Counted from the stretch's first letter, positions 1,069 to 27,994 are shown. The stretch is DNA of 64,000 bases from Patescibacteria group bacterium (GCA_040387855.1 JAZKCY010000001.1:846922-910921), one strand, 5' to 3'. The notes: a model not told the origin generated them from the sequence alone. Program-made: numbers and translations.

Positions 1069-4000
1069 TTACTTAATAAAACTGTTTTGGAATTTTCTAA
1101 GTGAATCATTAACGAGACTCTGCTGGGGAGAATCAATAATCATTCTATTTATTGCAACATAGGTTTGATATATCCACGCAAAATCACTTGGTTTATCTAA
1201 TTTTAACTCTTCTATTGATTTAGCACTTGTGATTACCTTGAGGGCATCTTTAACTAATAAAGTTTCTGCTTGTTTTTTAAGATACTCCTCAGCAACTGCT
1301 AAGAAATTTTTCCCCGGTTTAAAATCAGGAATAACAAGTTTATTTGCCCTAATGAAATCATTCCATGCGTCACCATACTTTGCCAAATTTTCAGGTCGAA
1401 TCTTTAATGCTTCAGGAGCTGTATTACTCTCAGTAGTATCGAATCTATCATATCTACTTGGATCCACTTCTTCCATATCACCTTCTTCAACGGTTGAATC
1501 ACTATTATTGTTTAACCCTAGATCCTCAGCCAAATCATCATCTTCATCCTCTGCTGAATCTTCGGACTTATTTGAGTCAATATCATATTCACCACCGCGA
1601 TTTGGAAGTGTATCAACTTTTCTCTTTTGTCCAAAACGCTGGAAATATCTTTTATTATCCACGAATGTCTTAAGTTTTTCTCGAGGTCCTGTCATGTGAG
1701 CAAACAAGTCACCCAACTTTCGTCTTCGATCACTCAACAATTTACGAGCTTCAGCAATCTTTGCTTTCCAATGTTTAACCTCATGTTTTCTAAGACTTTT
1801 ATCTCGTAGCTTTTCTTCTATTTTACTGATTAATCCTGTAAATTTTTCAATATCTTTTTCAAGTTCATTTTCACGATCTTTGAGTGCACCATATTTCTTT
1901 TCATAAGGAGCTGCCTTTTCATCTATTCTTCGAGTTATATCACCAATTATCGCTTCGCGTTGCGCCTCAAATGCTTTCAATGTATCTTGTGCAGTTTCGT
2001 ATTTTGTTTCAAGCTTATCCAACTTAGTTTCGCACTCTCGCTTTTTTACTCGTAGATCACGCAAAGATTTTTGAATCTCATTTTGCTTCTTTTCAGAAAT
2101 CCCCTGAGCAGCCTGCTCTTCAAGATATGCAATTTTACTTAGAATTGAATCTCGTTGTTGTGTAAGTCGGGGTATTTCTTGTTTAAAGATTCTCAACTTT
2201 GAATAGTGCTCCTCTACTTTATCTTCTAATTTTTCTGCACGCTTTGGATCTCTGATTGCATTAATTCTTTCAGCTATAGCATCTCGAGTTTTTCCTATAA
2301 ACTCTCCAAACTTACCTTGAAAGAGACCTCTTCTATTTTTCTTTGAAGATGGCGTTGTTTCTATTTTACTATCTGGCTTAAATGGTGGTATTACTTCTGA
2401 ATCAGGTTTCAACTTTAACTCTTCATCGATAATTTCAGGAGTAAGCTTTCCTGATTCTTCTTTAGGGAGATCCTGGTCTTTAGTATCTTTTACTTCAGGA
2501 GTAGGTTCAGGCTTTTTGCTGTTCATTCCTAAAGCTTCATCAATAGCAGCGTCATCTAGTGGTGCTTCTGGTGGGGGCAGATTTTCTGCATCAGTGTTAA
2601 CTGGTACGGGCTCAGCCTCAGCTGCTGGTTCTGGTGGATTGATTTCGGTTATAAGTTTTGAGATTTCTTTATCTGCATCTTTCAAACCACTAATTGCAAA
2701 ATGTGTACTACTCGTTATACGCCCTACTGTTTTAACATCATCATTTATTAAATGATTAAGCCATCGGTGAGCACGGTCTAAAGTTGTAATAATATTTGTT
2801 ACAGTTTCAGACTGATGTGATCCCTCAAGAGTTTTAAATTGGTTAAGTGAATCAGTAAGACCTTGAAAGACATCGCTTATAATCTCCTCATTATATGCTT
2901 TAGACTCTTCAAGATTTTTCAAAACCTCAACATACAAATTAAAATGCTCTTGATATGACTCTAATGTTCCTGGATGATCTTTAATAAAATCGAGCGTAAG
3001 AGGAATCATTTCTGGAGCGTCAGGAATTTTTTCTGCATTATCTTTTACCTCAGCACTCGTTTCTGCTGCAGTTTCAGCTTTCTTTGCTGCGAGCTCCTTT
3101 CCAAAATTTTCAATATCACGATAAGCAGCATTGAGAGCTGTAAGTGCGGCGTGCAAACTCTTACCCTTTTCTCTAGGATCATGTTTATTTTCTTTAACTT
3201 CTTTGAGGGCAGTCAGAGCGTTTATTATATGTTCCGAACAATTAGTTACACTTTTAAAATCTGCAAACTTTGATTCATTATGTAAAACTACATCACTATA
3301 CATAAGCTGCTCCCGAATGAGATCAATATCTTCGTCTCGTAAATCTTGTTGTCCGGTTATAGCCTTATCGACAGCATCCCCATATGAATTGAACTGCGCT
3401 GAAAAGATAATTAGATCAGTAGGGTTTTGTTTTAGATCTTCTACGGATAAAGTAGTAAAATCAATTAAATCATCTTTATTATAATCAAATCTTCGTGCTG
3501 GTTGTTCAGTACTTTCAGCAGCTGCTTCTGCAACTACGGGTTCTACAACAGTATCTCCTTCAGCAACTGTTGATTCAGCAGGAATCTCAGCCGGAGCTTC
3601 AGCTAGTACTGGCTCTGCTTCGGGCTGTACTTCAGCTACAGTAGGCACTGAAACTTCTGTCATTAAAGCATCTAATTTAGTTCTCACTTTTGTTAAAGAT
3701 TCCTTGATTCCTTCCAGTTCCTGTTGATGATTATCACCTTTGGCAAATGTAAGTAAATTCAATTCCCCTCTTGCTTCAATAACGTGAGACCGAACTTCTG
3801 CCGCTGCGAGTGATTGCGATTCAAATCTTTGTAAGCACGAATTAATCTTGTCTAAAGCTTTCTCTATAAATACATCTTGAGAACTATCAATCGTTTTTGT
3901 AGTAGCCAAAATCTTATCAACCATTCTTTCGAGCTGATCTACACTATCAAAAAAAACATTCAATCGATAAGGATCTTCCTTAAGACTATCCAATGTAAGA

Positions 4001-4419
4001 GCATTTAATTCACTCAAATCAACAGGCGCTTCATTTAACCCTTCTGGAGATTCACCCTTTTTTAACGTAGCTTCTACGTTACCTGTAAAATCCGTAGCTA
4101 TCGCCTCTGCACGGTCATGAGCATCAGGCATAATAGCAGCCGCCTGTTCAGCTGTTCCACCTTTATCTATAAATCTATTCATACCTTGCTGAGCTAATTC
4201 ATCAACATCATCAACAGCAGCTTCTGCTGTTAGATCAACATGAGTTCTAAGTGCTTCTGGTGTAAAAGTTTGAGCTTCCGGCCCTGTTTCACTAGCATCC
4301 AGGGTAGATTCACCTTCACCTCCCTCGACTCTAGTAGGATCTCCTGCATTTAATTGACCTTCGAGATCGCCAGGAGCTGGTTTGAGAATTTTATCAGGGC
4401 CATCCATTGTTGAAGTCAT
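1069..4419 (-). CDS. Hypothetical large acidic coiled-coil protein (1116 aa)
   Basis: Long uninterrupted ORF. E/K/D-rich heptad-like stretches and PEAEP/AEAP low-complexity linkers. No catalytic motifs recognised. Confidence 0.6.
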   Translation of the reverse strand: MTSTMDGPDKILKPAPGDLEGQLNAGDPTRVEGGEGESTLDASETGPEAQTFTPEALRTHVDLTAEAAVDDVDELAQQGMNRFIDKGGTAEQAAAIMPDAHDRAEAIATDFTGNVEATLKKGESPEGLNEAPVDLSELNALTLDSLKEDPYRLNVFFDSVDQLERMVDKILATTKTIDSSQDVFIEKALDKINSCLQRFESQSLAAAEVRSHVIEARGELNLLTFAKGDNHQQELEGIKESLTKVRTKLDALMTEVSVPTVAEVQPEAEPVLAEAPAEIPAESTVAEGDTVVEPVVAEAAAESTEQPARRFDYNKDDLIDFTTLSVEDLKQNPTDLIIFSAQFNSYGDAVDKAITGQQDLRDEDIDLIREQLMYSDVVLHNESKFADFKSVTNCSEHIINALTALKEVKENKHDPREKGKSLHAALTALNAAYRDIENFGKELAAKKAETAAETSAEVKDNAEKIPDAPEMIPLTLDFIKDHPGTLESYQEHFNLYVEVLKNLEESKAYNEEIISDVFQGLTDSLNQFKTLEGSHQSETVTNIITTLDRAHRWLNHLINDDVKTVGRITSSTHFAISGLKDADKEISKLITEINPPEPAAEAEPVPVNTDAENLPPPEAPLDDAAIDEALGMNSKKPEPTPEVKDTKDQDLPKEESGKLTPEIIDEELKLKPDSEVIPPFKPDSKIETTPSSKKNRRGLFQGKFGEFIGKTRDAIAERINAIRDPKRAEKLEDKVEEHYSKLRIFKQEIPRLTQQRDSILSKIAYLEEQAAQGISEKKQNEIQKSLRDLRVKKRECETKLDKLETKYETAQDTLKAFEAQREAIIGDITRRIDEKAAPYEKKYGALKDRENELEKDIEKFTGLISKIEEKLRDKSLRKHEVKHWKAKIAEARKLLSDRRRKLGDLFAHMTGPREKLKTFVDNKRYFQRFGQKRKVDTLPNRGGEYDIDSNKSEDSAEDEDDDLAEDLGLNNNSDSTVEEGDMEEVDPSRYDRFDTTESNTAPEALKIRPENLAKYGDAWNDFIRANKLVIPDFKPGKNFLAVAEEYLKKQAETLLVKDALKVITSAKSIEELKLDKPSDFAWIYQTYVAINRMIIDSPQQSLVNDSLRKFQNSFIK

Positions 4420-4580
4420 ATTTGTGAGAGTTCTTTTCTTAATTGATCAACCTTACTTTGTTCTAACTTTGCCATCGCTTTTTTCAACTCTTCACGATAT
4501 TCGTTTTTAAGTCCTTCAATTTTCTCCAGAAATTCTCTTTCTAGTTCTTTAATTTCTTCTACTTGAGACTCAGTTAACAT
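4416..4580 (-). CDS. Hypothetical small coiled-coil protein (~54 aa), translationally coupled to the 1116-aa gene
   Basis: My own translation: MLTESQVEEIKELEREFLEKIEGLKNEYREELKKAMAKLEQSKVDQLRKELSQI. Its TGA stop overlaps the ATG of the downstream gene (ATGA). It is below the ORF-track size cutoff. Confidence 0.3.
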   Translation of the reverse strand: MLTESQVEEIKELEREFLEKIEGLKNEYREELKKAMAKLEQSKVDQLRKELSQI

Positions 4581-4587: not shown

Positions 4588-5493
4588 TTATACAATGTTT
4601 TCTATACTCTTCAATTCAGCTATCCCCTGTTCTAAAGATATTTGCGGCTCCCAGTTAAGTAATTTTTTTGCTTTTGTTGCATCTGCACGACTATTTTGTG
4701 CTTCAAGACGAGCTGGTACATAAACAATGTCACCACCAATTAATTGAGCAAACATATTTATAGTATGATTTTTACCTGTTCCAATATTTATAACTTCTCC
4801 TTTTCCAATATTATTATTTTCCATTGCTAGGATATTTGCCCGGACAACATCATAAACATGCGTAAAATCTCTTGTTTGTTCACCACTACCAGTAATAGTG
4901 AGTGGTTTACCTTCTTTTTTTAGCTTAATAAAATGAGCAATTACTGATGGATATGCTCCACCAGCGCTTTGTCGAGGTCCATACACATTAAAATATCTAA
5001 ATGAAACTGTCGGCAATTGATATACCATGCTCCACACTTTGCAATATTCTTCACCAATATATTTGTGAAGTCCATAAGGACTCTTTGGCTGAGGAATCAT
5101 AGATTCTTCCCATGGTAAAACGGCTTGATCACCATATGCCGCAGATGACCCTGAATATATAACTTTTTTTACTTTTGCTTCATGTGAAGCAATAAGCACA
5201 TTGAGCATGCCTGTAACATTTATGTCATGCGTGCGATCTGGATGTTCGAGTGATTCTTGAATACTTGGCACTGCAGCTAAATGAAATACATAGTCTGCAC
5301 CTGAAATGACAGCAGTTACTCCTGTTTTATCTATGATACTAAGATGATGAAATGTAGCATCAGGGTGAATATTTTCTTTTTTACCTCCTGATAAATCATC
5401 AATGATATGAACATTAAAACCCTTTTCTACAAGGGCATGCACGAGGTGTGAACCAATAAATCCTGCTCCTCCAGTAACGACAACTTTATTCAT
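4588..5493 (-). CDS. NAD-dependent epimerase/dehydratase (UDP-sugar 4-epimerase family)
   Basis: N-terminal Rossmann GxxGxxG (VVVTGGAGFIGSHLV), a YxxxK context and the length typical of SDR-type nucleotide-sugar epimerases. Confidence 0.85.
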   Translation of the reverse strand: MNKVVVTGGAGFIGSHLVHALVEKGFNVHIIDDLSGGKKENIHPDATFHHLSIIDKTGVTAVISGADYVFHLAAVPSIQESLEHPDRTHDINVTGMLNVLIASHEAKVKKVIYSGSSAAYGDQAVLPWEESMIPQPKSPYGLHKYIGEEYCKVWSMVYQLPTVSFRYFNVYGPRQSAGGAYPSVIAHFIKLKKEGKPLTITGSGEQTRDFTHVYDVVRANILAMENNNIGKGEVINIGTGKNHTINMFAQLIGGDIVYVPARLEAQNSRADATKAKKLLNWEPQISLEQGIAELKSIENIV

Positions 5494-5538: not shown

Positions 5539-6894
5539 TTATTTACCAGCGATAGATAATAATTTCTTTACAGTTTTAAGTGCAATAGTTATATCCAGTA
5601 AGAATGATCTGTTTTTAAGATAATACAAGTCATATGAAAGCTTCTCCTTGGTTTCAATTACTCCCACACCATGGTGAGCATGATTGTCGTGATAGATTTG
5701 TGCCCATCCTGAAAGTCCCGGTTTAATTGTATGGCGAATCCCATAAAAAGGAATTTGTTTTTGATACTCAGCAACGAGTACTGGTAATTCTGGGCGTGGA
5801 CCAATAAGTGATATATCACCTTGTATTACATTAATAAGCTGAGGAAGCTCATCAAGTCTTGTTTTTCTAAGGAAAGTTCCAATTTTTGTAACTTTATTAT
5901 AGGCCCTACCCTGCTCATCATATTTTCCTGCACCAGCAGTGGTCATGGTTCGGAATTTTATAATCCACATTGATTCTCCATCTTTACCTATTCGTTCTGT
6001 GAAAAAGAAAAGCGGGCCCTTATCTTCTATCTTTATAGCAATATATATAAACGGATACACGATAAAAGAGATAAGTCCTAACGGTAAAGCAATTGCAATA
6101 TCCATAATTCGCTTAAGAGTATCGTACGCTCGTGTTGGTATAAAAGAAATATTTTCTAAGAACCAATCTTGAGTGATAAGTGATAACGGAATACGATCAA
6201 AAACAGTTTCATACATTTTATGCATATCTACAAACATAATCTGCGAGAATATACGGTCATACAAGACTGGAATTAATGGATCAATCTTTGGATGCTTAAA
6301 ATCAACAACAAGAAGAGATACCTTTCCAGCAGCTATCTCTTTTGAAATAAGTTCAGCTGCTTCATTGGCATGAATATGATCAAGATCTATTTGATGAGTA
6401 AAATGGATACTATATCGTTCATGTTTATTTACTTCGTCATACAGCTCTTTCATTTCTTTGCCTCGGGCAATAAGCACAGCTTGCTGCTTTTTTGCGCCAC
6501 CAAATAATGAATACCCCCAAATTCTCCATATATATATGAGTAGCAATGAGACACTTAAATAAATAAACAGATTTGTTTTTGGAGTAATTTCATAAAATGG
6601 AATAAAATAGAAAAACAATACAGCAATGATACTGTTTGTAATATGAGCCTTTAAAATATTGCTCGACAAACCATTACGTAAAATAATTGCTCTCTTTTCA
6701 TACAGTCCTCCAATAAAAAATACAAGTAGCCACACTATGAAAAGAATAGAAAACGGCACTAAGTGACTATATAAAATACTGTCATCAGGAATCTTTTGAT
6801 ATCTAATGAGCAACGTTACCCACAACGATGCATAGAATATTAGTATATCTGTAAAAAACAAGAGAAATGGAACCCGTTTATTGAGTGCGTTCAT
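5539..6894 (-). CDS. Polyprenyl-phosphate sugar phosphotransferase (WbaP/bacterial sugar transferase family)
   Basis: N-terminal multi-TM region. The C-terminal catalytic domain carries the conserved ...DELPQLINVIQGDISLIGPRPELP... motif of initiating sugar transferases. Confidence 0.85.
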   Translation of the reverse strand: MNALNKRVPFLLFFTDILIFYASLWVTLLIRYQKIPDDSILYSHLVPFSILFIVWLLVFFIGGLYEKRAIILRNGLSSNILKAHITNSIIAVLFFYFIPFYEITPKTNLFIYLSVSLLLIYIWRIWGYSLFGGAKKQQAVLIARGKEMKELYDEVNKHERYSIHFTHQIDLDHIHANEAAELISKEIAAGKVSLLVVDFKHPKIDPLIPVLYDRIFSQIMFVDMHKMYETVFDRIPLSLITQDWFLENISFIPTRAYDTLKRIMDIAIALPLGLISFIVYPFIYIAIKIEDKGPLFFFTERIGKDGESMWIIKFRTMTTAGAGKYDEQGRAYNKVTKIGTFLRKTRLDELPQLINVIQGDISLIGPRPELPVLVAEYQKQIPFYGIRHTIKPGLSGWAQIYHDNHAHHGVGVIETKEKLSYDLYYLKNRSFLLDITIALKTVKKLLSIAGK

Positions 6895-7022
6895 GAATGT
6901 TTTGTGGCTTCACTATAGCAAAAAGCCATAAAATTGCTAGCTGTTGAGGTGAGTTGTACACATGAGTGGTACTTTTTTATTACTAAATCTGATAGAATAA
7001 AATTCTAGTATCCTTTTGTCGT

Positions 7023-7307
7023 ATGGCTGTAGAATTTGAAGAAGATCAATTTAATACAATAGACCCAACAATGGCACGAATACATGCATCTCAAAAACAG
7101 CACTCAAGTCTCACATTGGTGCTCGTAAAAAAAGGGGTGTTTAAAAGTGAGCAGCAAGCTCATAAAGTTTTTTTGATTGTAGCACTTGTTTCTCTCCTCG
7201 CGTCAGTATTTATTATTGGGTACTTTGTATTTAATATTGGCAGACCACAAGAAACAAAATTGCAGTTGCCTCCTGAAATATTGCAAAAATTACAAGGTAC
7301 AAACTAA
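7023..7307 (+). CDS. Small single-TM protein, partner of a pilin cassette (paralog of 8182..8457)
   Basis: 94 aa with about 50 cytoplasmic residues, one TM helix, then a short tail. Shares LVKKG...EQA.K...TM...PEILQK.LQ with the 8182..8457 ORF. It stops 12 nt before the pilin gene start. Confidence 0.55.
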   Translation: MAVEFEEDQFNTIDPTMARIHASQKQHSSLTLVLVKKGVFKSEQQAHKVFLIVALVSLLASVFIIGYFVFNIGRPQETKLQLPPEILQKLQGTN

Positions 7308-7319
7308 TGACATTTTCAT

Positions 7320-8138
7320 ATGAAGTTCTTCCCATCGCATAAAAAATCCGGTTTTACGCTTATTGAGTTATTAGTGGTAGTTGCCATTATTGGTGTACTT
7401 TCGTCTATTGTACTCGTAAGCCTTAATACAGCACGAGTAAAGGCAAAAAATGCAGCGGCACTTGTTATTGTTCACCAAATACAAATCGCTATGGCACTTT
7501 ACTATGATGATTATGGCGAATATCCAGACAATGGCGATGGGTTTTATTGTATTGGTAGCGATCGCTGCTATATCAATGGACAAATCTATACTCAGGTTCT
7601 TACGTTAGATACTCTCAATAAAATCCCCCCAATACTTACATCTGAAACCAACTCATTCTGGTTTTCACCTGCTACAGCACATGCTGCAGGCGAATTCTCA
7701 AAATTCGTAGTGCCTATTGATAACGAGCAGAATGCCGGGGTAATTTACTATGAAGGTAGTAGTGATGAATCATATGTATTATTTCCAGAAGTTGAAGGAA
7801 ACACTACAACATGGTTCGCTCAAAATCCTGGCAATACTAGTACTACAGTATATACAACATCTTCTAACGAAAATGGAAGTGGAAGCGGTAGTGTATCAGA
7901 ATCTCCAAGCGAATCTGAATCACCTAGTGAATCTGAAAGTCCAAGTGATTCTGGCTCAACTAATAATAATTTATATTATTTCTGCGAATATCAAGGAGGA
8001 GCTACAGGTGATGGATATGGTTGGAGTGATGGAAATGATTGTACATACTATTACTGTTCTTACCAAGGGTATCCAAGTAACGGATACGGTTGGAGTAATG
8101 GATCAAATTGTGGTAATGGTTCAGGATCAGGTTCATAA
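7320..8138 (+). CDS. Type IV pilin-like protein (class III signal peptide) with a Ser/Glu-rich repeat and Cys-rich C-terminal region
   Basis: Prepilin motif KKSG|FTLIELLVVVAIIGVLSSIV, with G at -1, F at +1 and E at +5. The C-terminus has SESPSESESPSESESPSDSGS repeats and YxxC Cys-rich segments. Confidence 0.75.
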   Translation: MKFFPSHKKSGFTLIELLVVVAIIGVLSSIVLVSLNTARVKAKNAAALVIVHQIQIAMALYYDDYGEYPDNGDGFYCIGSDRCYINGQIYTQVLTLDTLNKIPPILTSETNSFWFSPATAHAAGEFSKFVVPIDNEQNAGVIYYEGSSDESYVLFPEVEGNTTTWFAQNPGNTSTTVYTTSSNENGSGSGSVSESPSESESPSESESPSDSGSTNNNLYYFCEYQGGATGDGYGWSDGNDCTYYYCSYQGYPSNGYGWSNGSNCGNGSGSGS

Positions 8139-8181
8139 ACCTATTTCAGTTAAGCGTACTCTAGTATATAATTAGCTTACT

Positions 8182-8457
8182 ATGGCAGAGATAGAATTTA
8201 ATGAAGAAAATAGATTAGATGTCGATCTCACTGCCCGTGCGGTTCCCCTTAGAGAAGAGCAGGGACTCATTTTTCTTGTAAAGAAAATGCATCTTGCCAA
8301 AAATAATGAGCAAGCTGAAAAAATACTTATAGTAATTGCAATTGCTTGTTTTGTTATGGCATTCGGAGTTGTGTTACTTCTCGTTGTTCGTCCAAAAAAT
8401 CAGGCTACCTATAAAGTCTCTCCTGAGATACTTAAAGATATTCAGAATAAACCATAA
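8182..8457 (+). CDS. Small single-TM protein, partner of a pilin cassette (paralog of 7023..7307)
   Basis: 91 aa with the same architecture and conserved motifs as 7023..7307. It stops 2 nt before the next pilin gene. Confidence 0.55.
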   Translation: MAEIEFNEENRLDVDLTARAVPLREEQGLIFLVKKMHLAKNNEQAEKILIVIAIACFVMAFGVVLLLVVRPKNQATYKVSPEILKDIQNKP

Positions 8458-8459
8458 CT

Positions 8460-9878
8460 ATGTTTAAAAAATTCTCACGAGGCTTTACATTGGTAGAACT
8501 TATAGTTGTTTTATCGGTGATTACATTGCTTGTATCTATTGTTCTTACATCCATTCAATCAGCTAAAGCAAGTGCACAAGATCGACAAGCTCGAAGTGAT
8601 GTTGCTGAGATTCAGCTTGGTCTTGAACTCTATTACAATCAAAATGGTCACTATCCCAAGCCTATAAGTAGAACTCCAGAACGATACTATTGTATTGGTA
8701 TTGCTCAAACTGATACCTGTATATTTGCTGACGAAATAAAATATGGTGATCCAACCCTCTATGCAATAAAGCCAAAAACAAATCCTGCAGGAGTAGAAAC
8801 TCTTATGGCACAAGCTTTGGGAGCGTTTAAACTTATTCCAACAATTGATCTAAATATAAGACCGGTTCGCACAGTTGGAGGTCAAAATTTTTGGGGATAT
8901 ATTTATGATACAGAAACAGAGGAAGTTATTTGGGCTGAGACGGATACTCTCATAAGTAGCCCTGCGGGAGAAACTATTCAAGATCCAAATGCTGGTGGCA
9001 CCGTACCTGAAGGATCTCAATTTGAAGTAAGTTGTGGTCAGTACAATGCCCTCTTCAATTTTATGTGGTTTGCTATCGGAGGTTGTGGATATCCTTGGTT
9101 TGCAACTCCATATGATCCAAGCGGATCAACATCTGGATCAGCTTCAACGTATGATTATAGTATTGGCTGGGAACGTGGATTTGGACCCTGTGCTGAAACC
9201 AATTACACCGTATCAAATTCATGTGTAACAGGATTCTTATGTAACTTTGATGGCGTTGGTGATAATCCATTATGTGATGTATCAGTAACACCTAGTGACT
9301 CTGATTCTCCGAGTGATTCAGGTAGTCCAAGCGAATCTGACTCTCCAAGTGATTCAGGTTCACCAAGTGACTCTGGTAGTCCTAGTGATTCTGGCTCACC
9401 AAGCGACTCAGGTAGCCCTAGTGATTCAGGTTCACCAAGCGACTCTGGTAGTCCTAGTGATTCAGGTTCACCAAGTGACTCTGGTAGTCCTAGTGATTCT
9501 GGTAGTGGCGGTGGTGGAGGTGGTTTTGTGTACTGTAGTGATTTATCTACAGCACCAACACTAGAAGATTGCCCAACTGAAGAACCATCTGGTTCATGCG
9601 GATATATTACCTACAACCCTTACTATGATACATATGATCCATCATCTCGATGCTATGATACATACGTGTACGCATGTGAAACCGGTCGTTATAGCTCTAT
9701 GGATATGTGCTACAACGAAAATCCAGCTTCATCATCTTCAGAATCTGAAAGCTACTCAGAGTCATATTCTGAAAGTTATTCTGATTCTGGCTCACCTAGT
9801 GAATCAGAGAGTCCAAGCGAATCAGAGTCACAAAGTGATTCTGGATCTGATTCTGGCGGAGGTTGGTGGTGGTGGTAA
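8460..9878 (+). CDS. Type IV pilin-like protein with a long (SDSGSP)n acidic Ser-rich repeat, Cys-rich segments and a C-terminal GGGWWWW
   Basis: Prepilin motif SRG|FTLVELIVVLSVITLLVSIV. There are about 12 SDSGSP repeats, a GGGGGG linker, a Cys-rich region, SESYSESYSESYS repeats and a terminal ...GGGWWWW. Confidence 0.75.
   Translation: MFKKFSRGFTLVELIVVLSVITLLVSIVLTSIQSAKASAQDRQARSDVAEIQLGLELYYNQNGHYPKPISRTPERYYCIGIAQTDTCIFADEIKYGDPTLYAIKPKTNPAGVETLMAQALGAFKLIPTIDLNIRPVRTVGGQNFWGYIYDTETEEVIWAETDTLISSPAGETIQDPNAGGTVPEGSQFEVSCGQYNALFNFMWFAIGGCGYPWFATPYDPSGSTSGSASTYDYSIGWERGFGPCAETNYTVSNSCVTGFLCNFDGVGDNPLCDVSVTPSDSDSPSDSGSPSESDSPSDSGSPSDSGSPSDSGSPSDSGSPSDSGSPSDSGSPSDSGSPSDSGSPSDSGSGGGGGGFVYCSDLSTAPTLEDCPTEEPSGSCGYITYNPYYDTYDPSSRCYDTYVYACETGRYSSMDMCYNENPASSSSESESYSESYSESYSDSGSPSESESPSESESQSDSGSDSGGGWWWW
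9296..9510 (+). repeat. Tandem 18-bp (36-bp superperiod) coding repeat encoding (SDSGSP)n
   Basis: Visible in the sequence: agtgactctggtagtcct agtgattcaggttcacca iterated about 6 times, with synonymous wobble changes. Confidence 0.8.
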
Positions 9879-9880: not shown

Positions 9881-12265
9881 TTACTTCTTTAGATCTCTTC
9901 TAAGAGAATATACAGCAGCTCCTAAAGCCAGTAGAGAAAGAATATACCCTATAATTAATGATAAAGGCTTAGCAAACGTTATTGTTGCTGAGTCTTTTAT
10001 GTATGTAAGTGTATATACAGGACTAGCCATGTAGGTTGATTCCCCATCCGTTCTTTTCCAAGCTGGAAAATATGTGGATGTAATAAGAACTGGTACTGCC
10101 TGCGGTGTAGATGAGGCAAATTTTACCTCTATTTTTGAATCAGTAATTAAATAAGAATCAATTGTAGGAATGTTTTTAATTGGTTGTTGAGTCTCTTTAA
10201 GAAATTCAAATATAAACCCCATAGCGGTTCGGATTACCTTTTGATCTCCATCTCGGGTTATTTGCTCTGCTACAAACCTTACATTCTTAGAACCTCTTAG
10301 TTTCTTTTCTAACCCAACAAATAATTCACTTTTATCTTGAATGAGTACTAGCGGATGTGTCTTAGCAAACTCAGTGATGCGAGCTAAAGCTTTATCATAA
10401 TTTTTATATGTATAATCTACGATAATAGCACTCTTAAAACGATCTAAATCAGGTGTAGTATCAAGATATTGGTCTTCCCCACGTGCTAAGACCATCGTAG
10501 GATCTGCTCGAAGGAACAATTCTTCCTGAAATCTGACAAAATCAAATGTAGTCGTGGTTCTCTTTTTAAAATCTGCTGGTGCAAATACAATTGTTGGCTC
10601 ATATTCCAAAGCGTGTACTTCTTTACGTACTGGATCCTTTAGATGATATATTCTCCAATGACCAAAATCTTTTTCAAGCTCCATATGAGGATCCTTTTCC
10701 ATCTGAGCTTTCATTTGTCCTGAAGAAACAATAAAGAAATTGATACCAAGTATTTGTGCACGAACTGCATCTTTATCGAATCCTTGGTTACGAAATACAG
10801 AATTTGATCTGAGATATGCATCTACCGACATTCGTTCATCTCGAGTCGAATATGCGCCTCGTACAGGCACCATAAATGGTGATTGAATAGCTGATTCTAC
10901 AAGAATATTGTAAGTACTTTTCATAGAGTCCCCTGCTTTGCGTGATATTACATATTCTAATGCACGGGCACCAGATGTAACTTCCACATTAAAGGTCCCC
11001 TTCTTATCTTTTAAATAGTCAGCTATGTCTTCTGCTCGGTCACGATTATAGCCAAAATAAAAATCGGAAATTTTATTGCTATTCATAATTGGAACCCAAG
11101 CCAAGATAAATGGGGTTGAAAATATAAGCGTGAAAAACACTTTATAAAATATACTTGGAAGGTAAAATATTATTCTATAGAGACAATAGCCCACACATAT
11201 CGCACTCAACATATAAAAGCATGGCAAGGCCCGGTAAATGTGTATTGGAAATCGTGGAAACAACCGTTCTACATGGAATGCAACTGGAATAAATAGAAGC
11301 AATGACGAAATACTCAATACAAGTATAGGCATATGTCTTTTCCGATATGCAAGAAGGCCGGCACCTACAGTAAATACAACAAGATGTGACCATCTCAACA
11401 AAAATAATCCTATTCCTGATGCACCAGGGCCAGTATCAATTCCCAGTGATCTACCCGCCATATTTCCAAAATATGCGAGCATTGGTAAATACCAAAACAA
11501 GGAAGCACCCAGTGGCAGTGCACCTAAAGCAAAAAATCGAACAAGTCTTTTGGTAAGATGCGGGTCTTGTAACCATTTTTTCGGATGAGTGAAAGCTCGA
11601 CGCTCAAGTGCTACAAACTGAACGATATAGACAACAAGAGCTACCGGTAACACATGAACACTAGCAAGCAATGTGAAAAACAATGCAACTATCGAAAGAT
11701 AATAGTCTCGTATCGATTTAGTGGCATTTAAAAAGAAATAGAGCCATATAATGAGACATATGAAACCAAACAAGTGCGGGGCTAATCCAACATGAAAAGT
11801 TCCCTGAAGTGTTACCCCCATATTTCCGTATTTGGGATAAAACATTGAAAGTAATACTGCTGCAGTAGCAACTGTAGAAGAAGCAGCCCATATATTCTTG
11901 GTATATTTATATAATATAAATCCTAATAATCCAGGGATTGCTAATGTTGATACTAAAATACATAGTTTGAATACTGCGGCATAACTAAGCGGCAGAAGCA
12001 TATATACAAAAGCTGCCACAAAATAAAACATTGGAGGATAAAACTGAGGAAATGGCATCCCATCAAACCATTTTTGTGTCCATCCCCAGGTACTTGGGAA
12101 TATATTCTTTGCATAATATTCACCTATAGCAACGTGCCCATACGAATCATTACCAGAAGGCACAGGAACGCGAATATATGTTACGAATAATTGAAAATTA
12201 AGAAAAAATAAAAGGATTGCACCTCCAATGAGTAATGAAGCGTATAGTATTATTGTCTTTTTCAC
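9881..12265 (-). CDS. Large polytopic membrane protein with a C-terminal extracytoplasmic domain; GT-C-fold glycosyltransferase-like, family unassigned
   Basis: 794 aa with about 13 predicted TM helices in the first roughly 400 residues, then a roughly 390-aa soluble domain. No WWDYG motif was seen, so it is not a confident STT3/PglB call. Its position beside pilins and glycosyltransferases suggests a role in glycan transfer or polymerisation. Confidence 0.45.
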   Translation of the reverse strand: MKKTIILYASLLIGGAILLFFLNFQLFVTYIRVPVPSGNDSYGHVAIGEYYAKNIFPSTWGWTQKWFDGMPFPQFYPPMFYFVAAFVYMLLPLSYAAVFKLCILVSTLAIPGLLGFILYKYTKNIWAASSTVATAAVLLSMFYPKYGNMGVTLQGTFHVGLAPHLFGFICLIIWLYFFLNATKSIRDYYLSIVALFFTLLASVHVLPVALVVYIVQFVALERRAFTHPKKWLQDPHLTKRLVRFFALGALPLGASLFWYLPMLAYFGNMAGRSLGIDTGPGASGIGLFLLRWSHLVVFTVGAGLLAYRKRHMPILVLSISSLLLFIPVAFHVERLFPRFPIHIYRALPCFYMLSAICVGYCLYRIIFYLPSIFYKVFFTLIFSTPFILAWVPIMNSNKISDFYFGYNRDRAEDIADYLKDKKGTFNVEVTSGARALEYVISRKAGDSMKSTYNILVESAIQSPFMVPVRGAYSTRDERMSVDAYLRSNSVFRNQGFDKDAVRAQILGINFFIVSSGQMKAQMEKDPHMELEKDFGHWRIYHLKDPVRKEVHALEYEPTIVFAPADFKKRTTTTFDFVRFQEELFLRADPTMVLARGEDQYLDTTPDLDRFKSAIIVDYTYKNYDKALARITEFAKTHPLVLIQDKSELFVGLEKKLRGSKNVRFVAEQITRDGDQKVIRTAMGFIFEFLKETQQPIKNIPTIDSYLITDSKIEVKFASSTPQAVPVLITSTYFPAWKRTDGESTYMASPVYTLTYIKDSATITFAKPLSLIIGYILSLLALGAAVYSLRRDLKK

Positions 12266-12337: not shown

Positions 12338-13474
12338 ATGAGCCAAAAGAAGATTCTTTTTATAATAACAAAATCAAATTGGGGCGGTGCGCAACGCTAT
12401 GTTTTTGATCTTGCGACTAGACTTTCCCCTACTGATTTCGATGTCTCTGTCCTTTTTGGAGGTCATGGGGTTCTTGCTGATAAACTAGTTGAGAAAAAAG
12501 TTCGAACACTTTCATTTGAAAAAATGTGGCGAGATATCAACTTTATTGAAGATGTTAAGGCATTCTTTAAATTGGTTTCTCTACTACGAGCAGAACGTCC
12601 AGACATAGTTCACCTTAATAGTTCTAAGATTGGTGGTCTTGGAGCTCTCGCAGCGCGAATTGCTGGTATTCCAAAAATCATTTTTACTGTTCACGGTTTT
12701 GCATTTAATGAAGACCGACCTCAGTGGCAAAAATTAGTAATAAAATGCATAAGTTGGATAACAATGTTTTTATGCACAGATGTAATTTTTATTTCAAAAA
12801 CCGAACATGCCCAAATAGCGAAATGGCCGCTTGTGTCTCATAAAGGCAAGATTATCTACAATGGTATAGAGACACCTGAATTTTATGATCGCACCACAGC
12901 TCGATCACTGATGGCATCTACACTTGCGATCTCTCAAGACACACTTGATGGTAAACCAGTTGTACTTACCATTGCTGAACTAACCCATAATAAAGGGCTT
13001 ATCTATGCACTTGAAGCTATGCGTGATCTTCCCGAGCATATCTACATTATTATTGGCGGTGGAGAGTGCGAGCAAGCGTTTAGAGCCTATATTCACGAGC
13101 ATACTCTTGAAAACAGAGTGTTTCTAGCAGGCTTTGTAAAAAACGCGGCACAGTATTTACACGCAGCTGATATCTTTCTTTTACCATCAATTAAAGAAGG
13201 TCTTCCCTATGTGCTTATTGAAGCAGGCTTTGCAGAATTACCAACAGTAGCTACGTATATTGGAGGTATTGCTGAAATTATTGAGGATCAAAAAACAGGC
13301 ACACTCATACAGCACCGATCTGCATCTGAAATAGTACACGCGCTTAAGACATATAGTGAAAACCCCGTAAAAGCTCGAGAGCACGGATCTGCCCTTTTAC
13401 ATAAAGTACAAAGTGAATTTAGTAGTTCAAAAATGATCGAACAAACATCAGCGCTCTATCTCCAAAAATCTTAA
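12338..13474 (+). CDS. Glycosyltransferase family 4 (GT-B fold)
   Basis: N-terminal NWGGAQRYV-type motif and a C-terminal EGLPYVLIEAGFAELPTVATYIGGIAEII (E-x7-E GT4 signature). Confidence 0.8.
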   Translation: MSQKKILFIITKSNWGGAQRYVFDLATRLSPTDFDVSVLFGGHGVLADKLVEKKVRTLSFEKMWRDINFIEDVKAFFKLVSLLRAERPDIVHLNSSKIGGLGALAARIAGIPKIIFTVHGFAFNEDRPQWQKLVIKCISWITMFLCTDVIFISKTEHAQIAKWPLVSHKGKIIYNGIETPEFYDRTTARSLMASTLAISQDTLDGKPVVLTIAELTHNKGLIYALEAMRDLPEHIYIIIGGGECEQAFRAYIHEHTLENRVFLAGFVKNAAQYLHAADIFLLPSIKEGLPYVLIEAGFAELPTVATYIGGIAEIIEDQKTGTLIQHRSASEIVHALKTYSENPVKAREHGSALLHKVQSEFSSSKMIEQTSALYLQKS

Positions 13475-21622: not shown

Positions 21623-21737
21623 CTTCGTACCGGCGGCTAGCTACTTTCCCCCCAGAAGGGTATCATCGCCTCAACGGGGCTTAACTGCTGTGTTCGGAAT
21701 GAGAACAGGTGTGGCCCCCGCGACAAACCACCAGAAC
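21623..21737 (-). rRNA. rrf: 5S rRNA
   Basis: The reverse complement reads tctggtggtttgtcgcggggg...ccgaacacagcagttaagccccgttgaggcgatgatacccttctggggggaaagtagctagccgccggtacgaag, which has the canonical 5S helices and the CCGAAC...GTTAAGC core. Confidence 0.85.
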
Positions 21738-22149
21738 GAAACATTCAATGTACTACTTTCAAATTTAATCAATTGAAAGCTCTAAAGTGGGCGCGGCTAC
21801 CAGGAAGTGGGGGACCTGAACAACAAGCCGGCCACTTTATTACTGGAAGACCACGCTTCGCTCCGAAGAGCTAAAGAACATGATCCACTTTGGAACTTTC
21901 AATTACAAGAGCTTTTACAAACAACAATACTTACTGTTCATGGAACCCCTCGATTTCACTCGGGGTAAAAATTCCATGTAACAGGATAAAATCAAGATTT
22001 TGCAATTTAAATTGCGGTGCTTCATACATTTCCTAATAAGGATCGATTAATTAGTACATCTCGGCTCAACACATTACTGTGCGTACACCTAATGCCTATA
22101 TACGTAATCATCTCTTACGAATCTCAAACGATTTCTAATCTTGGAGTAT

Positions 22150-22180
<31 letters not shown>

Positions 22181-22336
22181 ATTTCCCGACATAGCTACTC
22201 TGCGATGCCCTTGGCAGGACAGCAGATAGACCAGAGGTCAGTTCAACTCGGTCCTCTCGTACTAGAGTCAAATCTCCTCAAAAATCAACGCCTGCAGCAG
22301 ATAGGAGACCAACCTGTCTCACGCATATTTGTCACA

Positions 22337-22662
22337 CATCACTGTGTGTATTGGACTATAGCTTCATCCCCTTTTTAAAGAAGGACTACTGACGATTAGT
22401 CTCTACGGGCTCTAGATTTCTCTAAATTCCCTCGGTATAGCCTTGATCATCAATCAAGATTCCACCGAAATTAGTCAGTTTGATTCATAAATATTTCTAT
22501 TCATGACCGCCGTGATTAGTATACTTCTGTATACTGGTTAGTTTCATATCTTGCGAATAGGTTACTCACCTATTCGACTTTGTTAAACGAAAAAACACTT
22601 TAATGTTTTCTTCCTCTGTTGGGGTTCAGACGGTTCAAGAGACAACTCACGTTATCTACTGA
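22337..22662 (-). other. Intervening sequence 1 in 23S rRNA (about 326 nt, ORF-less), a putative group I intron at E. coli position about 2585-2593
   Basis: The exon sequence ...GGTTCAGACCGT | CGTGAGACAGGTTGGTCTCCTATCTG... matches E. coli GGTTTAGAACGTCGTGAGACAGTTCGGTCCCTATCTG. It is interrupted by 326 nt that are absent from canonical 23S. The upstream exon ends in T and the insert ends in G. Confidence 0.6.
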
Positions 22663-23325
22663 ACGGTCTGAACCCAGCTCGCGTATCTTTTTAAATGGCG
22701 AACAGCCATACCCTTGGAAGCTTCTCCACCTCCAGGATAAGATGAGCCGACATCGAGGTGCCGAACACTACCGTCGCTCTGGACGCTTAGGTAGTACCAG
22801 CCTGTTATCCCTAGAGTAGCTTTTATCCGATAATCTCCGGCCGCATCTAATGCGAACCGTCGGTTCACTTTGTCCCGCTTTCGCGCCTGTTCGACAAGTA
22901 CGTCTTACAGTCAAGCAAGCTTATGCCAATACACTATCGCCACGGTTTCCATTCGCGGCTAGCTTACCTTAATGAACTCCTCCGTTACTTTTTAGGAGGA
23001 TAGCGCCCCACTAAAACTGCCCACCAGATACTGTCTCTCATCGTTTTTGCCGTTGAGGTTAGAGTGTACATCTATAAAGAATGGTATTTCACTGACGACT
23101 CCACCATCCCCGAGAGGATAGCTTCAAAGTCTCCCATCTATGCTACGCAGTAACAACGTACACGCAATATCAAGTTGCAGTAAAGCTTCTAGGGTCTTTT
23201 CGTCTAGCTGCAGGTAACCGGCATCTTCACCGGTATTGTATTTTCACCGGGCGAGTCCCCGAGACAGTTGCTCAGTCATTACACCATTCGTGCGCGTCAG
23301 AACTTACCTGACAAGGAATTTCGCT

Positions 23326-23573
<248 letters not shown>

Positions 23574-24995
23574 CAGGGCTTATATCAGTCAGCAATTAAA
23601 TCTTGCGATCCAATCACCGCCAATATTTGACCTTCTGGCATTGGTCAGGTGTCACCCCCTATACATCCTCTTTCGAGTTCGCAGGGAGCTGTGTTTTTGG
23701 TAAACAGTTGCCAAGCATACTTTAGCTGCGGCCTACTTGCGTAGGCAAGCCTTATCCCGAAGTTACGGCTGCTTTTTTGCCGAGTTCCTTGGGGACCTCT
23801 CACCCGTTCGTCTTGGTCTACTCGACCTGATCACCTGTGTCGGTTTGCGGTACGGTTTTCATAGTGATAATTTTAGGGGTTTTTCTTGGGAGCGTGCTTT
23901 CAAGACTTAGCTTGGGTTGCCCCTTGCATCGTCGCTTCATTTCCAGTCGCCATTGAAGGCAGAGTTCCGGATTTACCTAGAACTCCCAGTTAAGACACGA
24001 ACATCAATCCAATAAGATGATCTTGATACTACACCCCGTCCTCCCATCAAACACTATAAAAGTCATGGAATATTAACCATGTGTCCATCGGATGCGGCGT
24101 TTGCCATCTCCTTAGGCCCGACTAACCCTTCGCTGATTGTCATCGCGAAGGAAACCTTGATCTTTCGACGTGTATGGTTTTCACATACATTGTGGTTACT
24201 TGTGCCAACATTCTTACTTCGCAACGCTCCAGTATGGGTCACCCCTTTACCTTCATCGCTGATGCGAATACTCTCCTACCAGTATAACTATTCGAAAATA
24301 ATTATAATCCTCAGTTTCGGTACTACGCTTAGCCCCGATTATCTTCGGTGCGGAAACTCTCGATGAGTGAGCTGTTACGCTTTCTTTAAAGGATGGCTGC
24401 TTCTAAGCCAACCTCCTCATTGTCTGAGAGTTTCCACTTCCTTGAGTGCACTTAGCGTAAATTTAGGGACCTTAAATAGAGATCCGGGCTGTTTCCCTTT
24501 TGACCAATGGAGCTTAGCCCCCACAGTCTAACTGCCATGTTCTTGATCTTTGGTATTCGGAGTTTGATAGGTCTCGCGAGATTTCTCCCTGTCGAGACCT
24601 TCCAGTGCTCTACCCCCAAAGGGAACACATGACGCTAGCCCAAAAGCTATTTCGGAGAGAACCAGCTATTACCAGGCTCGGTTAGCTTTTCACTTCTTAC
24701 CACAAGTCATCCCAAGATGTTGAACGGTCTACGGGTTCGGGCCTCCATTGTTCTTTCGAACAACTTCACCCTGCTCATGGCAAGCTCGCTCTGGTTTCGG
24801 GTCTGATGCATACTACTTATTCGCGCTATTCACACTCGGTTTCCCTAGGACTCCAAGCTCTCGCTCTTAGTCATGCAGCATGCATCAACTCGTTGGCTCA
24901 TTCTTCAATAGGCACGCCGTGACGGATGCTTGCGCACCCGCTCCGACTCCTTGTAGGCATATGGTTTCAGGTCTATTTCACTGTCCTCACCGGAC

Positions 24996-25037
<42 letters not shown>

Positions 25038-25839
25038 TCTGAAAATATTTAGCCTTACCGGTTAGTTCCGGCAGATTCCTCCGAGCCATTCGTGTCTCGA
25101 AGTACTCAAGAATGACAACAAAAAAGATAATTCATTTTAACGTACGGGGCCATTACCCTCTAGGGCGCTGCTTTCCAACAGCTTGCGCTAATGAATCATT
25201 TTGTAACTTTTCTTGCTTAAAAAGCAACGTTATCACCTTACAACCCCCAGTCGTCAACTTAGAAGAGAATTGCTTCCCCACTAAGTTGAAGACTGAGTTT
25301 GGGCTTCTACGCTTTCGCTCGCCGCTACTTACGTAATACTTATTAGTTTCTTTTCCTCTAGGTACTGAAATGTTTTACTTCCCTAGGTATGCTCTAAATG
25401 CGTCAAGCGCATTAGTCTCAACTTATAGTTGAGGGGTTTCCCCATTCGGAAATCTTCGGATCGACTGTTGCCAGGCACATCCCCGAAGCTTATCGCAGCC
25501 ATGCCACGTCCTTCATCGCTTTTCAGAGCCAAGGCATCCACCATATGCCCTTACATTCCCTATTAGGAAATGTAAGAACCACAATCTTGTTTTATCCTGT
25601 TACATGTAATCTTTCGATTTCAGTAACAAGTTTTAATGTATTGTTTACCTGTTTAATCACTATTGCCCTACAAGACAATAGTGAAGTTTTTGTTCTGATG
25701 ATGTTCTTATCAAACATCACCAGAGCTCTTGCCTGTCCTCACCACCCGAAAAGACCCATATGCACTCCTGCACGTAAGTTCTTTAGTGATGGAACAGAAT
25801 TAAATTTTCAAATGACTTATTCGGACTTATATTCTTAAC

Positions 25840-25864
25840 AAAAAATCCGCTTTCGCGCGGATCG
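25840..25864 (-). terminator. Rho-independent terminator (minus strand) in the spacer between the GC-rich island and the 23S rRNA leader
   Basis: The minus strand reads cgatccgcgcgaaagcggat followed by TTTTTT. Confidence 0.45.
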
Positions 25865-26036
25865 TAGATACACTCTATTGCTAGGGCTTATCTATATCCG
25901 ATTAAGATTTCTTGTTAACAACATAATTTCAGTAGTGATGCCTATTATACACACCGAGAAAATAGAGTCAAGAGATTATTTAAAACAAATGAAACACCTA
26001 TATAAATCAAGCTAAGATTAGTATTTAAAGACGAAT

Positions 26037-26062
26037 GAAGCCGCACTGTTTGGTGCGGCTTC
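26037..26062. terminator. Perfect 10-bp hairpin at the left edge of the GC-rich island (possible terminator or boundary element)
   Basis: gaagccgcac tgtttg gtgcggcttc. On the plus strand it is followed by a T-rich tract. Confidence 0.3.
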
Positions 26063-26152
26063 GTGCTCATTTTATTATTCGGTAGTAGCACACCGGGCGA
26101 ATTTCTTCGCGAAAGATCAAATGTGACTCAGTTCAGGACCTCAGACGTCAGG

Positions 26153-27001: not shown

Positions 27002-27065
27002 TGTAAACCGTCCTTGATTGAGAACTAATGGATACTAAACCGAACGATTCGGCCTATATCCACGC

Positions 27066-27102
27066 TGTGTATATATTACCATATTTTATACATAAAGTCA
27101 AA
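27066..27102 (-). promoter_or_regulatory. Near-consensus sigma70 promoter for island ORF 1 (TTGACT-17-TGgTAATAT)
   Basis: Minus strand: tTTGACTttatgtataaaatatggTAATATatac. -35 lies at revcomp 27096-27101 and -10 at revcomp 27073-27078. Confidence 0.5.
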
Positions 27103-27103
27103 T

Positions 27104-27136
27104 AAAAAAGACCCCACACAACTATGTCGTGCGGGG
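27104..27136 (-). terminator. Rho-independent terminator of island ORF 2
   Basis: Minus strand: ccccgcacgacatagttgtgtgggg followed by TCTTTTTT. One G.T wobble in an 8-bp stem. Confidence 0.5.
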
Positions 27137-27216
27137 CCCTTGCATTTCGAGAACGGTGGAAAATGCTCACCGATAAAGATCAAATCTCATGACGCTACGC
27201 TACTATGCCCTGTCAA

Positions 27217-27759: not shown

Positions 27760-27829
27760 GGGAACCGTCCTTGAAATGAGAGCTGACGTGCATACGACCG
27801 GACTGTCCGGCAATAACACATCCTGGGTA

Positions 27830-27858
27830 TATGATATCATATTTATACAAATTTGTCA
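27830..27858 (-). promoter_or_regulatory. Near-consensus sigma70 promoter for island ORF 2 (TTGACA-17-TGaTATCAT), divergent partner of the ORF 3 promoter
   Basis: Minus strand: TTGACAaatttgtataaatatgaTATCAT. -35 lies at revcomp 27853-27858. Confidence 0.5.
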
Positions 27859-27867
27859 AATATATTA

Positions 27868-27895
27868 TTTGACTTTATTTATTTATATGATATAA
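27868..27895 (+). promoter_or_regulatory. Near-consensus sigma70 promoter for island ORF 3 (TTGACT-16-TGaTATAAT)
   Basis: TTGACTttatttatttatatgaTATAAT. -35 is at 27868-27873 and -10 at 27890-27895, with an extended TG. Confidence 0.55.
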
Positions 27896-27994
27896 TACAT
27901 ACTAAGGAAAAGCGTTCGGTTACTCTCGGTCTCCGGGAGCGACGCTAATCCAAGACTCCTGTTACCTGCGAATTTCGCAGGAGGAGAAGGTATC

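Follow-up and report, generated by a model that had tools for sequence, protein, structure and literature searches.

A predicted family of small bitopic membrane proteins encoded next to type IV prepilin genes in Patescibacteria

Introduction

The closest functional precedent that we can offer for the genes described here is, by analogy, the pilin-accessory cassette of Pseudomonadota, exemplified by TfpX, TfpY and TfpZ of Pseudomonas aeruginosa and FimB of Dichelobacter nodosus (PMC11841053). The role proposed for TfpY is to interact with pilins and to prime assembly while staying out of the fibre; TfpY-like proteins have ~235-245 amino acids (aa), three N-terminal transmembrane (TM) helices and a periplasmic beta-sheet domain, and their genes lie 3' of pilA behind an attenuating terminator, so that the product stays below the level of pilin (PMC11841053). 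Here, we describe two gene pairs in a stretch of 64,000 nucleotides (nt) from the metagenome-assembled genome of a Patescibacteria group bacterium (GCA_040387855.1 JAZKCY010000001.1:846922-910921; the whole stretch is referred to as the window), each consisting of a gene for a small predicted membrane protein (small1, small2) followed within a few nt by a gene for a type IV prepilin (pilin1, pilin2). The small genes encode members of a previously unannotated family of ~95-aa proteins, predicted to be bitopic and so far confined to Patescibacteria/Paceibacteria-type genomes, and across these genomes a family gene typically stands directly 5' of a prepilin gene. This appears to be a lineage-restricted new protein family within a pilin-plus-accessory cassette, with a mechanism that we infer.

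Like the TfpX/Y/Z-FimB cassettes, these pairs place a membrane protein of unknown biochemistry beside a particular pilin gene, with which it seems to be co-inherited as a cassette. Unlike TfpY and FimB, the family proteins have ~95 aa, one TM helix and a tail of ~25 residues, and are encoded upstream, as the first, tightly coupled cistron. Judged by these descriptions of architecture, the family would bear a functional likeness to TfpY/FimB without being a member of it.

Three other kinds of protein invite comparison. PilN, PilO, GspM and GspL are bitopic, N-in membrane proteins of type IV filament machinery, and PilN binds the cytoplasmic protein PilM through a conserved N-terminal peptide. 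They are encoded once per machine, with pilM, and have about 160-200 aa with a periplasmic coiled coil and a ferredoxin-like domain, whereas the small proteins of the window have 94 and 91 aa and a ~25-residue tail with one short helix. PscE/PscG of the type III secretion needle and FliS of the flagellum are small, acidic, soluble cytoplasmic chaperones that are encoded beside the gene for their substrate, bind it one-to-one, cap its polymerisation surface and dock to the export machine; the small proteins are likewise small, acidic and encoded beside the presumed substrate, but are membrane-embedded, and binding is putative. PilS, a multi-pass histidine kinase that recognises the membrane-embedded N-terminal segment of pilin and regulates transcription, is a precedent for intramembrane pilin recognition, although the small proteins have no output domain.

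In Patescibacteria (Candidate Phyla Radiation, CPR), the principal surface organelle known is the type IV pilus, whose assembly in these cell-wall-bearing bacteria with reduced genomes is poorly understood. Cultivated relatives attach to their hosts and move by means of such pili (PMC11623550). The small protein may offer a handle on how pilin subunits are dealt with in the membrane before assembly, which is the same open question that TfpY and FimB of proteobacteria pose (PMC11841053).

Results and discussion

A family of small proteins with one predicted TM helix

The features of the two gene pairs are as follows, with positions counted from the first nt of the window.

6990..6998, plus strand: candidate extended -10 element (TGATAGAAT) 5' of small1, weak, read from the sequence
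7006..7011, plus strand: second -10 candidate, TAGTAT, 5' of small1
7023..7307, plus strand: small1, predicted 94-aa bitopic membrane protein and family member, with the acidic N-terminus MAVEFEEDQ and a LVKKGVFKSEQQA motif
about 7161..7232, plus strand: predicted TM helix of small1 (about residues 47-70); the external tail after the helix has PPEILQKLQ
7320..8138, plus strand: pilin1, 272-aa prepilin with the leader MKFFPSHKKSG, then FTLIELLVV
7890..7953, plus strand: Ser/Pro/Glu repeat in pilin1, period 18 nt, 3.6 copies, found with TRF
8167..8172, plus strand: exact TATAAT, ending 9 nt 5' of the small2 ATG
8182..8457, plus strand: small2, 91-aa paralog of small1, with MAEIEFNEEN, LVKKMHLAKNNEQA, a TM helix and SPEILKDIQ
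8460..9878, plus strand: pilin2, 472-aa prepilin with the leader MFKKFSRG, then FTLVELIVV
9289..9504, plus strand: (SPSDSG)n repeat of pilin2, period 18 nt, ~12 copies, found with TRF
9738..9857, plus strand: further, degenerate repeat block in pilin2

The original prediction, made from the sequence alone, had placed four open reading frames (ORFs) here with short gaps between the members of each pair, and this is what the sequence holds: stop-to-start gaps read off it are 12 nt for small1-pilin1 and 2 nt for small2-pilin2. In NCBI, both small proteins are entered as hypothetical proteins (V4519_04700 and V4519_04710, Patescibacteria group bacterium). No third copy of the small gene or of a prepilin was found in the 64 kb when all six frames were searched with a hidden Markov model (HMM) of the two proteins and a prepilin motif.

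Word-index searches with small1, small2 or an alignment of the full family return only the queries or six proteins. The family is revealed by an exhaustive HMMER search with a two-sequence profile over 1.84 billion cluster representatives (E<=1e-3), which yields 63 representatives, all of 65-127 aa. A common layout holds for the family sequences that were read or aligned, at an overall identity of 20-35%. Within the first ~10 residues lies the motif [VI]-[EQ]-F-x-[ED]-[ED], which reads VEFEED in small1 and IEFNEE in small2 and whose Phe (F5) is present in 56 of 62 members. A poorly conserved linker separates it from a juxtamembrane motif, [KR]-x-[GKH]-[LI]-[AV]-K-[TND]-[ED]-x-Q-A (KKGVFKSEQQA in small1, KKMHLAKNNEQA in small2; A46 in 58/63), that leads straight into the single TM helix; G-Y-F-V-F-G-I-G-x-P is often found at the outer end of the helix, and a short external tail of ~25 residues with P-P-E-[IL] follows. 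The family alignment holds 2.3 bits per column in the N-terminal motif, 1.9 in the juxtamembrane motif, 1.6 in the TM helix, 1.1 in the tail and 0.65 in the linker. An AlphaFold2 (AF2) model of small1 made with this alignment has a mean pLDDT of 79, with a TM helix at residues 43-69 (pLDDT >90) and, elsewhere, a low-confidence N-terminus, two short helices, coil and a final short helix at residues 84-92.

The N-side flank of the TM helix is richer in Lys and Arg than the C-side flank in 43/63 members and poorer in 7/63, which under the positive-inside rule favours an N-in/C-out orientation, the same as that of a prepilin. The first 15 residues carry a net negative charge in 59 of the 63. Named sources of family members are Patescibacteria, Paceibacter, Paceibacterota and Taylorbacteria, together with one entry labelled only "bacterium" and one labelled Nitrosopumilus, which we take to be from a mis-binned contig.

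No Pfam family is consistently matched by the 63 members (E<=0.01), and searches of NCBIfam, PHROGs, PDB sequences and, by Foldseek with the AF2 model, of structures turned up nothing meaningful for the small protein. The original prediction had set the small protein apart from PilM, PilN and PilO, and we agree: PF05137 (PilN), PF04350 (PilO), PF11104 (PilM_2) and T2SSM are matched neither by small1 or small2 at E<=1 nor by the 63 members at E<=0.01, and one locus with a family gene (L004, see below) has PilO-like and PilM genes of its own. We found no description of the family in the literature searched, which is no proof that none exists. Lastly, because K-K-G/V-F-K-S-E in small1 resembles the prepilin-peptidase site G/FTLIE (the slash marks the cleavage position), we considered the small protein as a substrate of that peptidase. 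We rejected this, since the Gly is not invariant and no hydrophobic segment adjoins it: the candidate -1 Gly (position 38) is present in 32/63 members, small2 has Met-His there, and ~8 polar residues precede the TM helix.

Family genes stand directly before prepilin genes in many genomic contexts

We surveyed the neighbourhoods of family genes in a set of loci (L numbers below) that comprises the cluster representatives on usable contigs and two loci, one on a genome contig and one on a metagenome contig, found by scanning with a pattern from a six-sequence alignment; each locus was searched with the family HMM and the prepilin motif. For 13 of the 15 family genes, at 12 distinct loci, a prepilin starts on the same strand -4 to +35 nt after the small gene (median about 8), which has a binomial probability of 2e-13 even if pilins are generously assumed to make up 7.5% of the neighbouring genes, and the small gene is 5' of the pilin in 13/13 pairs. 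The central idea of the original prediction, that the small protein is a dedicated partner of a pilin, survives this survey, with the small ORFs tied to pilins in related genomes as well as in the window. The roles offered there for such a partner, a chaperone, an anchor or a membrane-insertion factor, are hypothetical.

The flanking genes vary while the pair persists in at least six contexts, and the pair thus behaves as a mobile two-gene module. It is found in a locus for glycan synthesis that is syntenic with the window (L003, L009/L010, L012, L013, L016/L017); in a type IV pilus (T4P) machinery cluster with two T2SSE ATPases, MshEN, PilM and a weak PilO-like gene (L004); beside metG and DUF5652 (L005); beside a recG-like helicase gene (L011); between fba and the gene for ribosomal protein L25 (L014); and beside rbfA/infB (L018). 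The machinery cluster is the setting of only one of the 12 loci, and the window itself has two copies of the small gene, one per pilin. Tandem small-pilin cassettes like those of the window also occur in L012.

The proposed link to atypically large, repeat-bearing pilins did not hold up, as the partner pilins at other loci have 157, 197, 198, 268, 288, 318-332 (start codon uncertain), 353, 519, 559 and >1,700 aa. A head motif, YP...[YC]CIGxxxC, is present in 9 of 12 full-length partner pilins. Near-identical pairs of loci have 0 differences in the small gene, and the remaining pairs are too diverged for dN/dS.

Several copies have individual features. L012 has at 683-895 a 70-aa family copy that lacks the external tail and lies 5' of a pilin with a Laminin_G_3 (LamG) domain. 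At 5994-6248 of L016/L017, an 84-aa orphan copy lies behind a 559-aa pilin. The L008 copy, at 5001-5339, precedes prfB; 3 kb upstream of this copy are two pilins without a partner. Directly 5' of the pair in L005-L007, three contigs with the same gene, is a gene for a 109-aa DUF5652 (PF18893) protein.

The window carries two old, divergent cassettes

As predicted originally, each small ORF is followed by a gene with a class III signal, G/FTL[IV]EL, consisting of a short basic leader ending in Gly, Phe at +1 and Glu at +5. PF07963 (N_methyl) matches pilin1 at 35.4 bits (E 6.6e-9) and pilin2 at 26.2 bits (E 5.3e-6), both above the gathering score of 21.2, and TIGR02532 matches them at 34.4 and 24.3 against a cut-off of 16.3. 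The N-terminal helices of both resemble those of GspG/ComGC, and the two proteins share 36% identity across their first ~130 residues (E 1e-16). By these sequence criteria both large genes are type IV prepilins, and their cleavage and N-methylation by a prepilin peptidase and their assembly into a filament are predicted. Behind the shared N-terminal region, pilin1 has a YP...YCIGSDRC head, the SPSESE repeat and two Cys-rich C..YQG..GYGWS.G..C modules; in pilin2 the head has YYCIGIAQTDTC, and after it come the long SPSDSG repeat, a run of Gly, one Cys-rich module and a second repeat that is acidic and rich in Ser.

The repeat tracts of both pilins (SPSESE and SPSDSG) match models of the staphylococcal serine-aspartate (SD) repeat adhesins SdrC, SdrD, ClfA and ClfB, and do so through the repeat region only, at residues 278-464 in the case of pilin2. 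The match is compositional and far under the cut-offs (41.6 bits against 1700), the window pilins have neither LPXTG nor an adhesin A domain, and the likeness belongs to the pilins, not to the small protein. In staphylococci, GT4-type enzymes glycosylate SD repeats. The (SPSESE)n and (SPSDSG)n tracts of the window lie among GT4, GT2 and Bac_transf genes and the gene for a 794-aa protein, and this placement of SD-like tracts among glycosyltransferase genes suggests that the pilin stalks may be heavily O-glycosylated.

The original prediction had also described the small ORFs as paralogs within a tandem duplication. Paralogy is borne out: small1 and small2 are 23% identical over their full length (BLASTP E 8e-7), and their Smith-Waterman score of 81 compares with 33.8 +/- 6.9 for shuffled sequences, none of 5000 of which reaches 81. 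Since the TM segment could inflate the score, each of the three segments (N-terminal, TM, C-terminal) kept its own composition in the shuffles; the cytoplasmic N-terminal parts alone are also significantly similar (2/5000 shuffles). As to the shared motifs that had been listed, LVKKG/LVKKM and PEILQKLQ/PEILKDIQ stand, while the exact EQAxK is found in small2 only (EQAEK), small1 having EQQAHK.

By contrast, we reject a recent tandem duplication, because there is no extended DNA similarity and small1 is closer to copies in other genomes. Similarity between the cassettes at the DNA level is limited to the Ser/Pro/Asp/Glu repeat unit and a 16-nt stretch encoding the N-terminal VEF/IEF motif. Small1 resembles the L004, L012 and L005 copies more closely than it does small2, pilin1 likewise resembles the L005, L004 and L011 pilins more closely than it does pilin2, and the nearest relatives of small2 are P0003 (E 4e-19) and P0004. 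On these comparisons, small1 and small2 are true but old paralogs, and the two cassettes are anciently diverged subtypes rather than products of a simple recent event.

A candidate promoter close to the small gene

An exact TATAAT ends 6-10 nt 5' of the ATG in 9 of 15 small genes, and at 6-7 nt in seven of these nine; among all ATG ORFs of >=100 aa in the same loci the background is 4.5% (p 3e-9). These -10 boxes were found by direct inspection with a control count. A promoter scan that requires a -35 element, run together with a terminator scan, found nothing useful around the cassettes. In the window, the TATAAT at 8167..8172 is likely to be the promoter -10 element of cassette 2, which would give a leader that is very short or absent; cassette 1 has only the weaker candidates listed above. 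Given how far from a -10 box transcription usually starts, the arrangement suggests that the small gene is a leaderless, or nearly leaderless, first cistron. With the pilin ATG only a few nt behind the small gene, both proteins are probably made from one mRNA at a fixed ratio, and the pilin would be translated by coupling after the small gene. No GGAGG-like ribosome-binding site was seen before the pilin ATGs inspected.

The external tail of the small protein co-diverges with the pilin head

We compared alignment-score similarities across 12 small-pilin pairs, taking mature residues 29-120 as the pilin head. Similarity between small proteins tracks similarity between the heads of their partners (r 0.63, Mantel p 1e-4), and does not track similarity in the nearly invariant alpha1-N segment of the pilin. 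The correlation with the head is strongest for the external tail (r 0.70, Mantel p 2e-4), against r 0.30 for the cytoplasmic part and r 0.16 for the TM segment, and for the tail it is retained within the nine "CIG" pairs (r 0.47, p 0.003). The N-terminal part and the tail of the same small protein are uncorrelated (r -0.27), a result that speaks against an effect of the species tree alone.

A possible membrane escort for pilins, and its alternatives

We propose, as a tentative reading that we find plausible, that the small protein acts in the membrane as an escort or adaptor specific to the pilin with which it is produced, because its cytoplasmic motifs are constant, its tail varies with the pilin head, its orientation is that of the prepilin and a common mRNA is probable. 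The small protein would insert N-in/C-out, like the prepilin, and bind its own (pre)pilin in the membrane, with the variable tail lying against the stalk or head of the pilin. The invariant VEFxEE and K-x-G-h-A-K-x-x-x-Q-A motifs would contact a constant partner, which might for instance be the prepilin peptidase, the ATPase or the platform on which the pilus is assembled, and the escort would hold the subunit and then deliver it to the pilus machine or gate its entry. That the two proteins are co-translated and physically bind each other is inferred, as is whether the effect is to promote or to restrain assembly. A bolder version, possible in our view but rather doubtful, is that these proteins form a new class of subunit-specific pilin escort, made from a leaderless bicistronic mRNA, whose tail caps the pilin and whose N-terminal peptide docks the pair; the escort logic of type III secretion and flagellar chaperones would then have been moved into the membrane of ultra-small episymbiotic bacteria. 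If this bolder version is correct, these organisms could choose which of many adhesin-bearing pilins are displayed. If the pairing is only regulatory or translational, it would still be a conserved leaderless two-gene module in organisms without genetics. Either way, the family may serve annotation, as a 95-aa ORF with VEFxEE and KxGxAKxxxQA flags a downstream pilin, even one that is huge or domain-less.

Several points weigh against the escort reading. Binding, co-transcription and expression are predictions. Two family genes lack a downstream pilin: that of L008, which is followed by prfB, and the second copy of L016/L017, which sits behind a pilin with none after it. Conversely, there are pilins without a partner in the same loci, the two of L008 and the LamG pilin of L009, and, since the loci were located via the small gene, the share of pilins that use such a partner cannot be deduced from them. 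The tail-less copy paired with the LamG pilin of L012 means that the tail cannot be essential in every pairing. Finally, the co-divergence of tail and head, drawn from 9-12 pairs with a crude measure of similarity and ancestry partly controlled, is a pointer and no proof.

The adjacency, topology and co-divergence data would be shared by a gatekeeper or negative regulator, a small protein that retains the pilin or masks its leader or cleavage site from the prepilin peptidase, and that sets which pilin enters the fibre instead of aiding assembly. Its acidic N-terminus (59/63) would face the basic prepilin leaders (+1 to +4) on the cytoplasmic side of the membrane, but basic leaders are universal among prepilins, which makes this charge complementarity unspecific. 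Moreover, regulators are seldom made from the tightly coupled mRNA of their own target; the data do not separate a positive from a negative effect, and we regard a gatekeeper as unlikely. Quite improbable, in our estimate, is an adaptor for pilin glycosylation that joins Ser-rich pilins to neighbouring membrane glycosyltransferases. In six genomes the pair does lie in a locus with Bac_transf, GT4, GT2 and a large polytopic protein, and in five relatives of the window (L003, L009/L010, L012, L013, L016/L017) a GT4 homolog ends ~8 nt 5' of the small gene; GtrA, GT2 and PMT genes lie just 3' of the pair in L005, and the window pilins bear SD-repeat-like tracts. However, no glycosylation genes are nearby in L004, L011, L014 and L018, and pilins of only 157-198 aa are also paired.

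Alternatively, the small protein could be a minimal subunit of the assembly platform, a reduced functional analog of PilN, PilO or GspM that is general to the machine. Like PilN, it is predicted to be bitopic with its N-terminus inside and has a conserved N-terminal peptide, and one copy lies within a T4P cluster beside PilM genes (L004). That the gene is duplicated per pilin speaks against such a subunit, as does its travelling with pilins rather than with pilM, pilB and pilC. In addition, PilN, PilO and T2SSM models find no match at E<=1, the external part of ~25 residues holds no ferredoxin-like domain, L004 has a separate weak PilO-like gene, and CPR genomes reportedly possess PilN and PilO families of their own (PMC6744442); we consider a platform subunit hard to credit. 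The position of the -10 box 6-10 nt before the ATG in 9/15 small genes, the tiny gaps and the missing GGAGG-like sites at the pilin starts inspected would fit a translational loading cistron, from which ribosomes that start at a leaderless 5' AUG are passed to the pilin start and whose peptide has little function. This is very improbable, because F5 (56/62) and A46 (58/63) are kept at 20-35% identity, as are length, TM helix and motifs across 63 clusters, and such residue-level conservation indicates constraint on the protein that a mere loading ORF would not need. Least probable of all, and in our judgement extremely so, is coincidental synteny, by which an unrelated small membrane protein gene came to stand beside pilins through inheritance within one lineage. 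Many of the loci are indeed from related Paceibacteria-type genomes with a common glycan-locus order, but the pairing recurs in at least five other, unrelated contexts in which the flanks change and the pair stays.

The surroundings of the cassettes in the window

The genes flanking the two cassettes are as follows.

4588..5493: epimerase, in the divergent left flank
5539..6894, minus strand: Bac_transf phosphoglycosyl transferase, divergent neighbour; with the epimerase it forms the conserved left flank
9881..12265, minus strand: 794-aa polytopic membrane protein, convergent neighbour and conserved right flank
12338..13474, plus strand: GT4 glycosyltransferase

After the cassettes the order of genes is that for the 794-aa protein, GT4, GT2, FtsW and further glycosyltransferases. 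The gene order of the window recurs in the Paceibacter genome of L009, where the positional counterpart of the 794-aa protein has 785 aa and is 36% identical to it (E 1e-151); the 794-aa protein itself has no Pfam or NCBIfam match. The epimerase/Bac_transf left flank is also present in L003, L009/L010, L013 and L016/L017. No pilus machinery (prepilin peptidase, ATPase or platform genes) was found in the scanned part of the 64-kb window.

Beyond the epimerase, at 1069-4580 on the minus strand, lies a gene for a 1116-aa acidic protein that has no Pfam domain; SMC/Rad50-type models match it weakly and far below threshold at residues ~711-973, which suggests a coiled coil. Just upstream of this gene is a 54-aa Glu/Lys-rich ORF. 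In L009, L013 and L016, an ORF of 53-55 aa and a large ORF cut by the end of the locus likewise flank the epimerase/Bac_transf genes, a likeness in size and order.

Further along the window, a 23S-5S rRNA unit occupies 21628-25564 on the minus strand, with a group I intron within the 23S gene (22332..22549); no 16S gene adjoins the unit, and no tRNA genes were found in the 64 kb. Directly beyond the 5' end of the 23S rRNA gene and before rplL/rplJ, at 25600-30500, is an island of ~4.5-5 kb with 53-56% G+C, against ~37% for the genome. Rfam models, that of 16S included, find nothing in it even with lax thresholds, and its ORFs, which are 141-282 aa long and count two plausible membrane proteins among them, match nothing in Pfam or PHROG. 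The island may have been inserted from a foreign source, result from a chimeric assembly or be something that we do not recognise.

Finally, the gene at 54496-58014 on the minus strand encodes a 1172-aa, IleRS-like class I aminoacyl-tRNA synthetase that contains a histidine-phosphatase domain. The PF00300 match is complete (E 2.3e-31, residues 521-683), and the domain is placed after the best-matching stretch of the catalytic domain (residues 26-516) and before the anticodon-binding domain.

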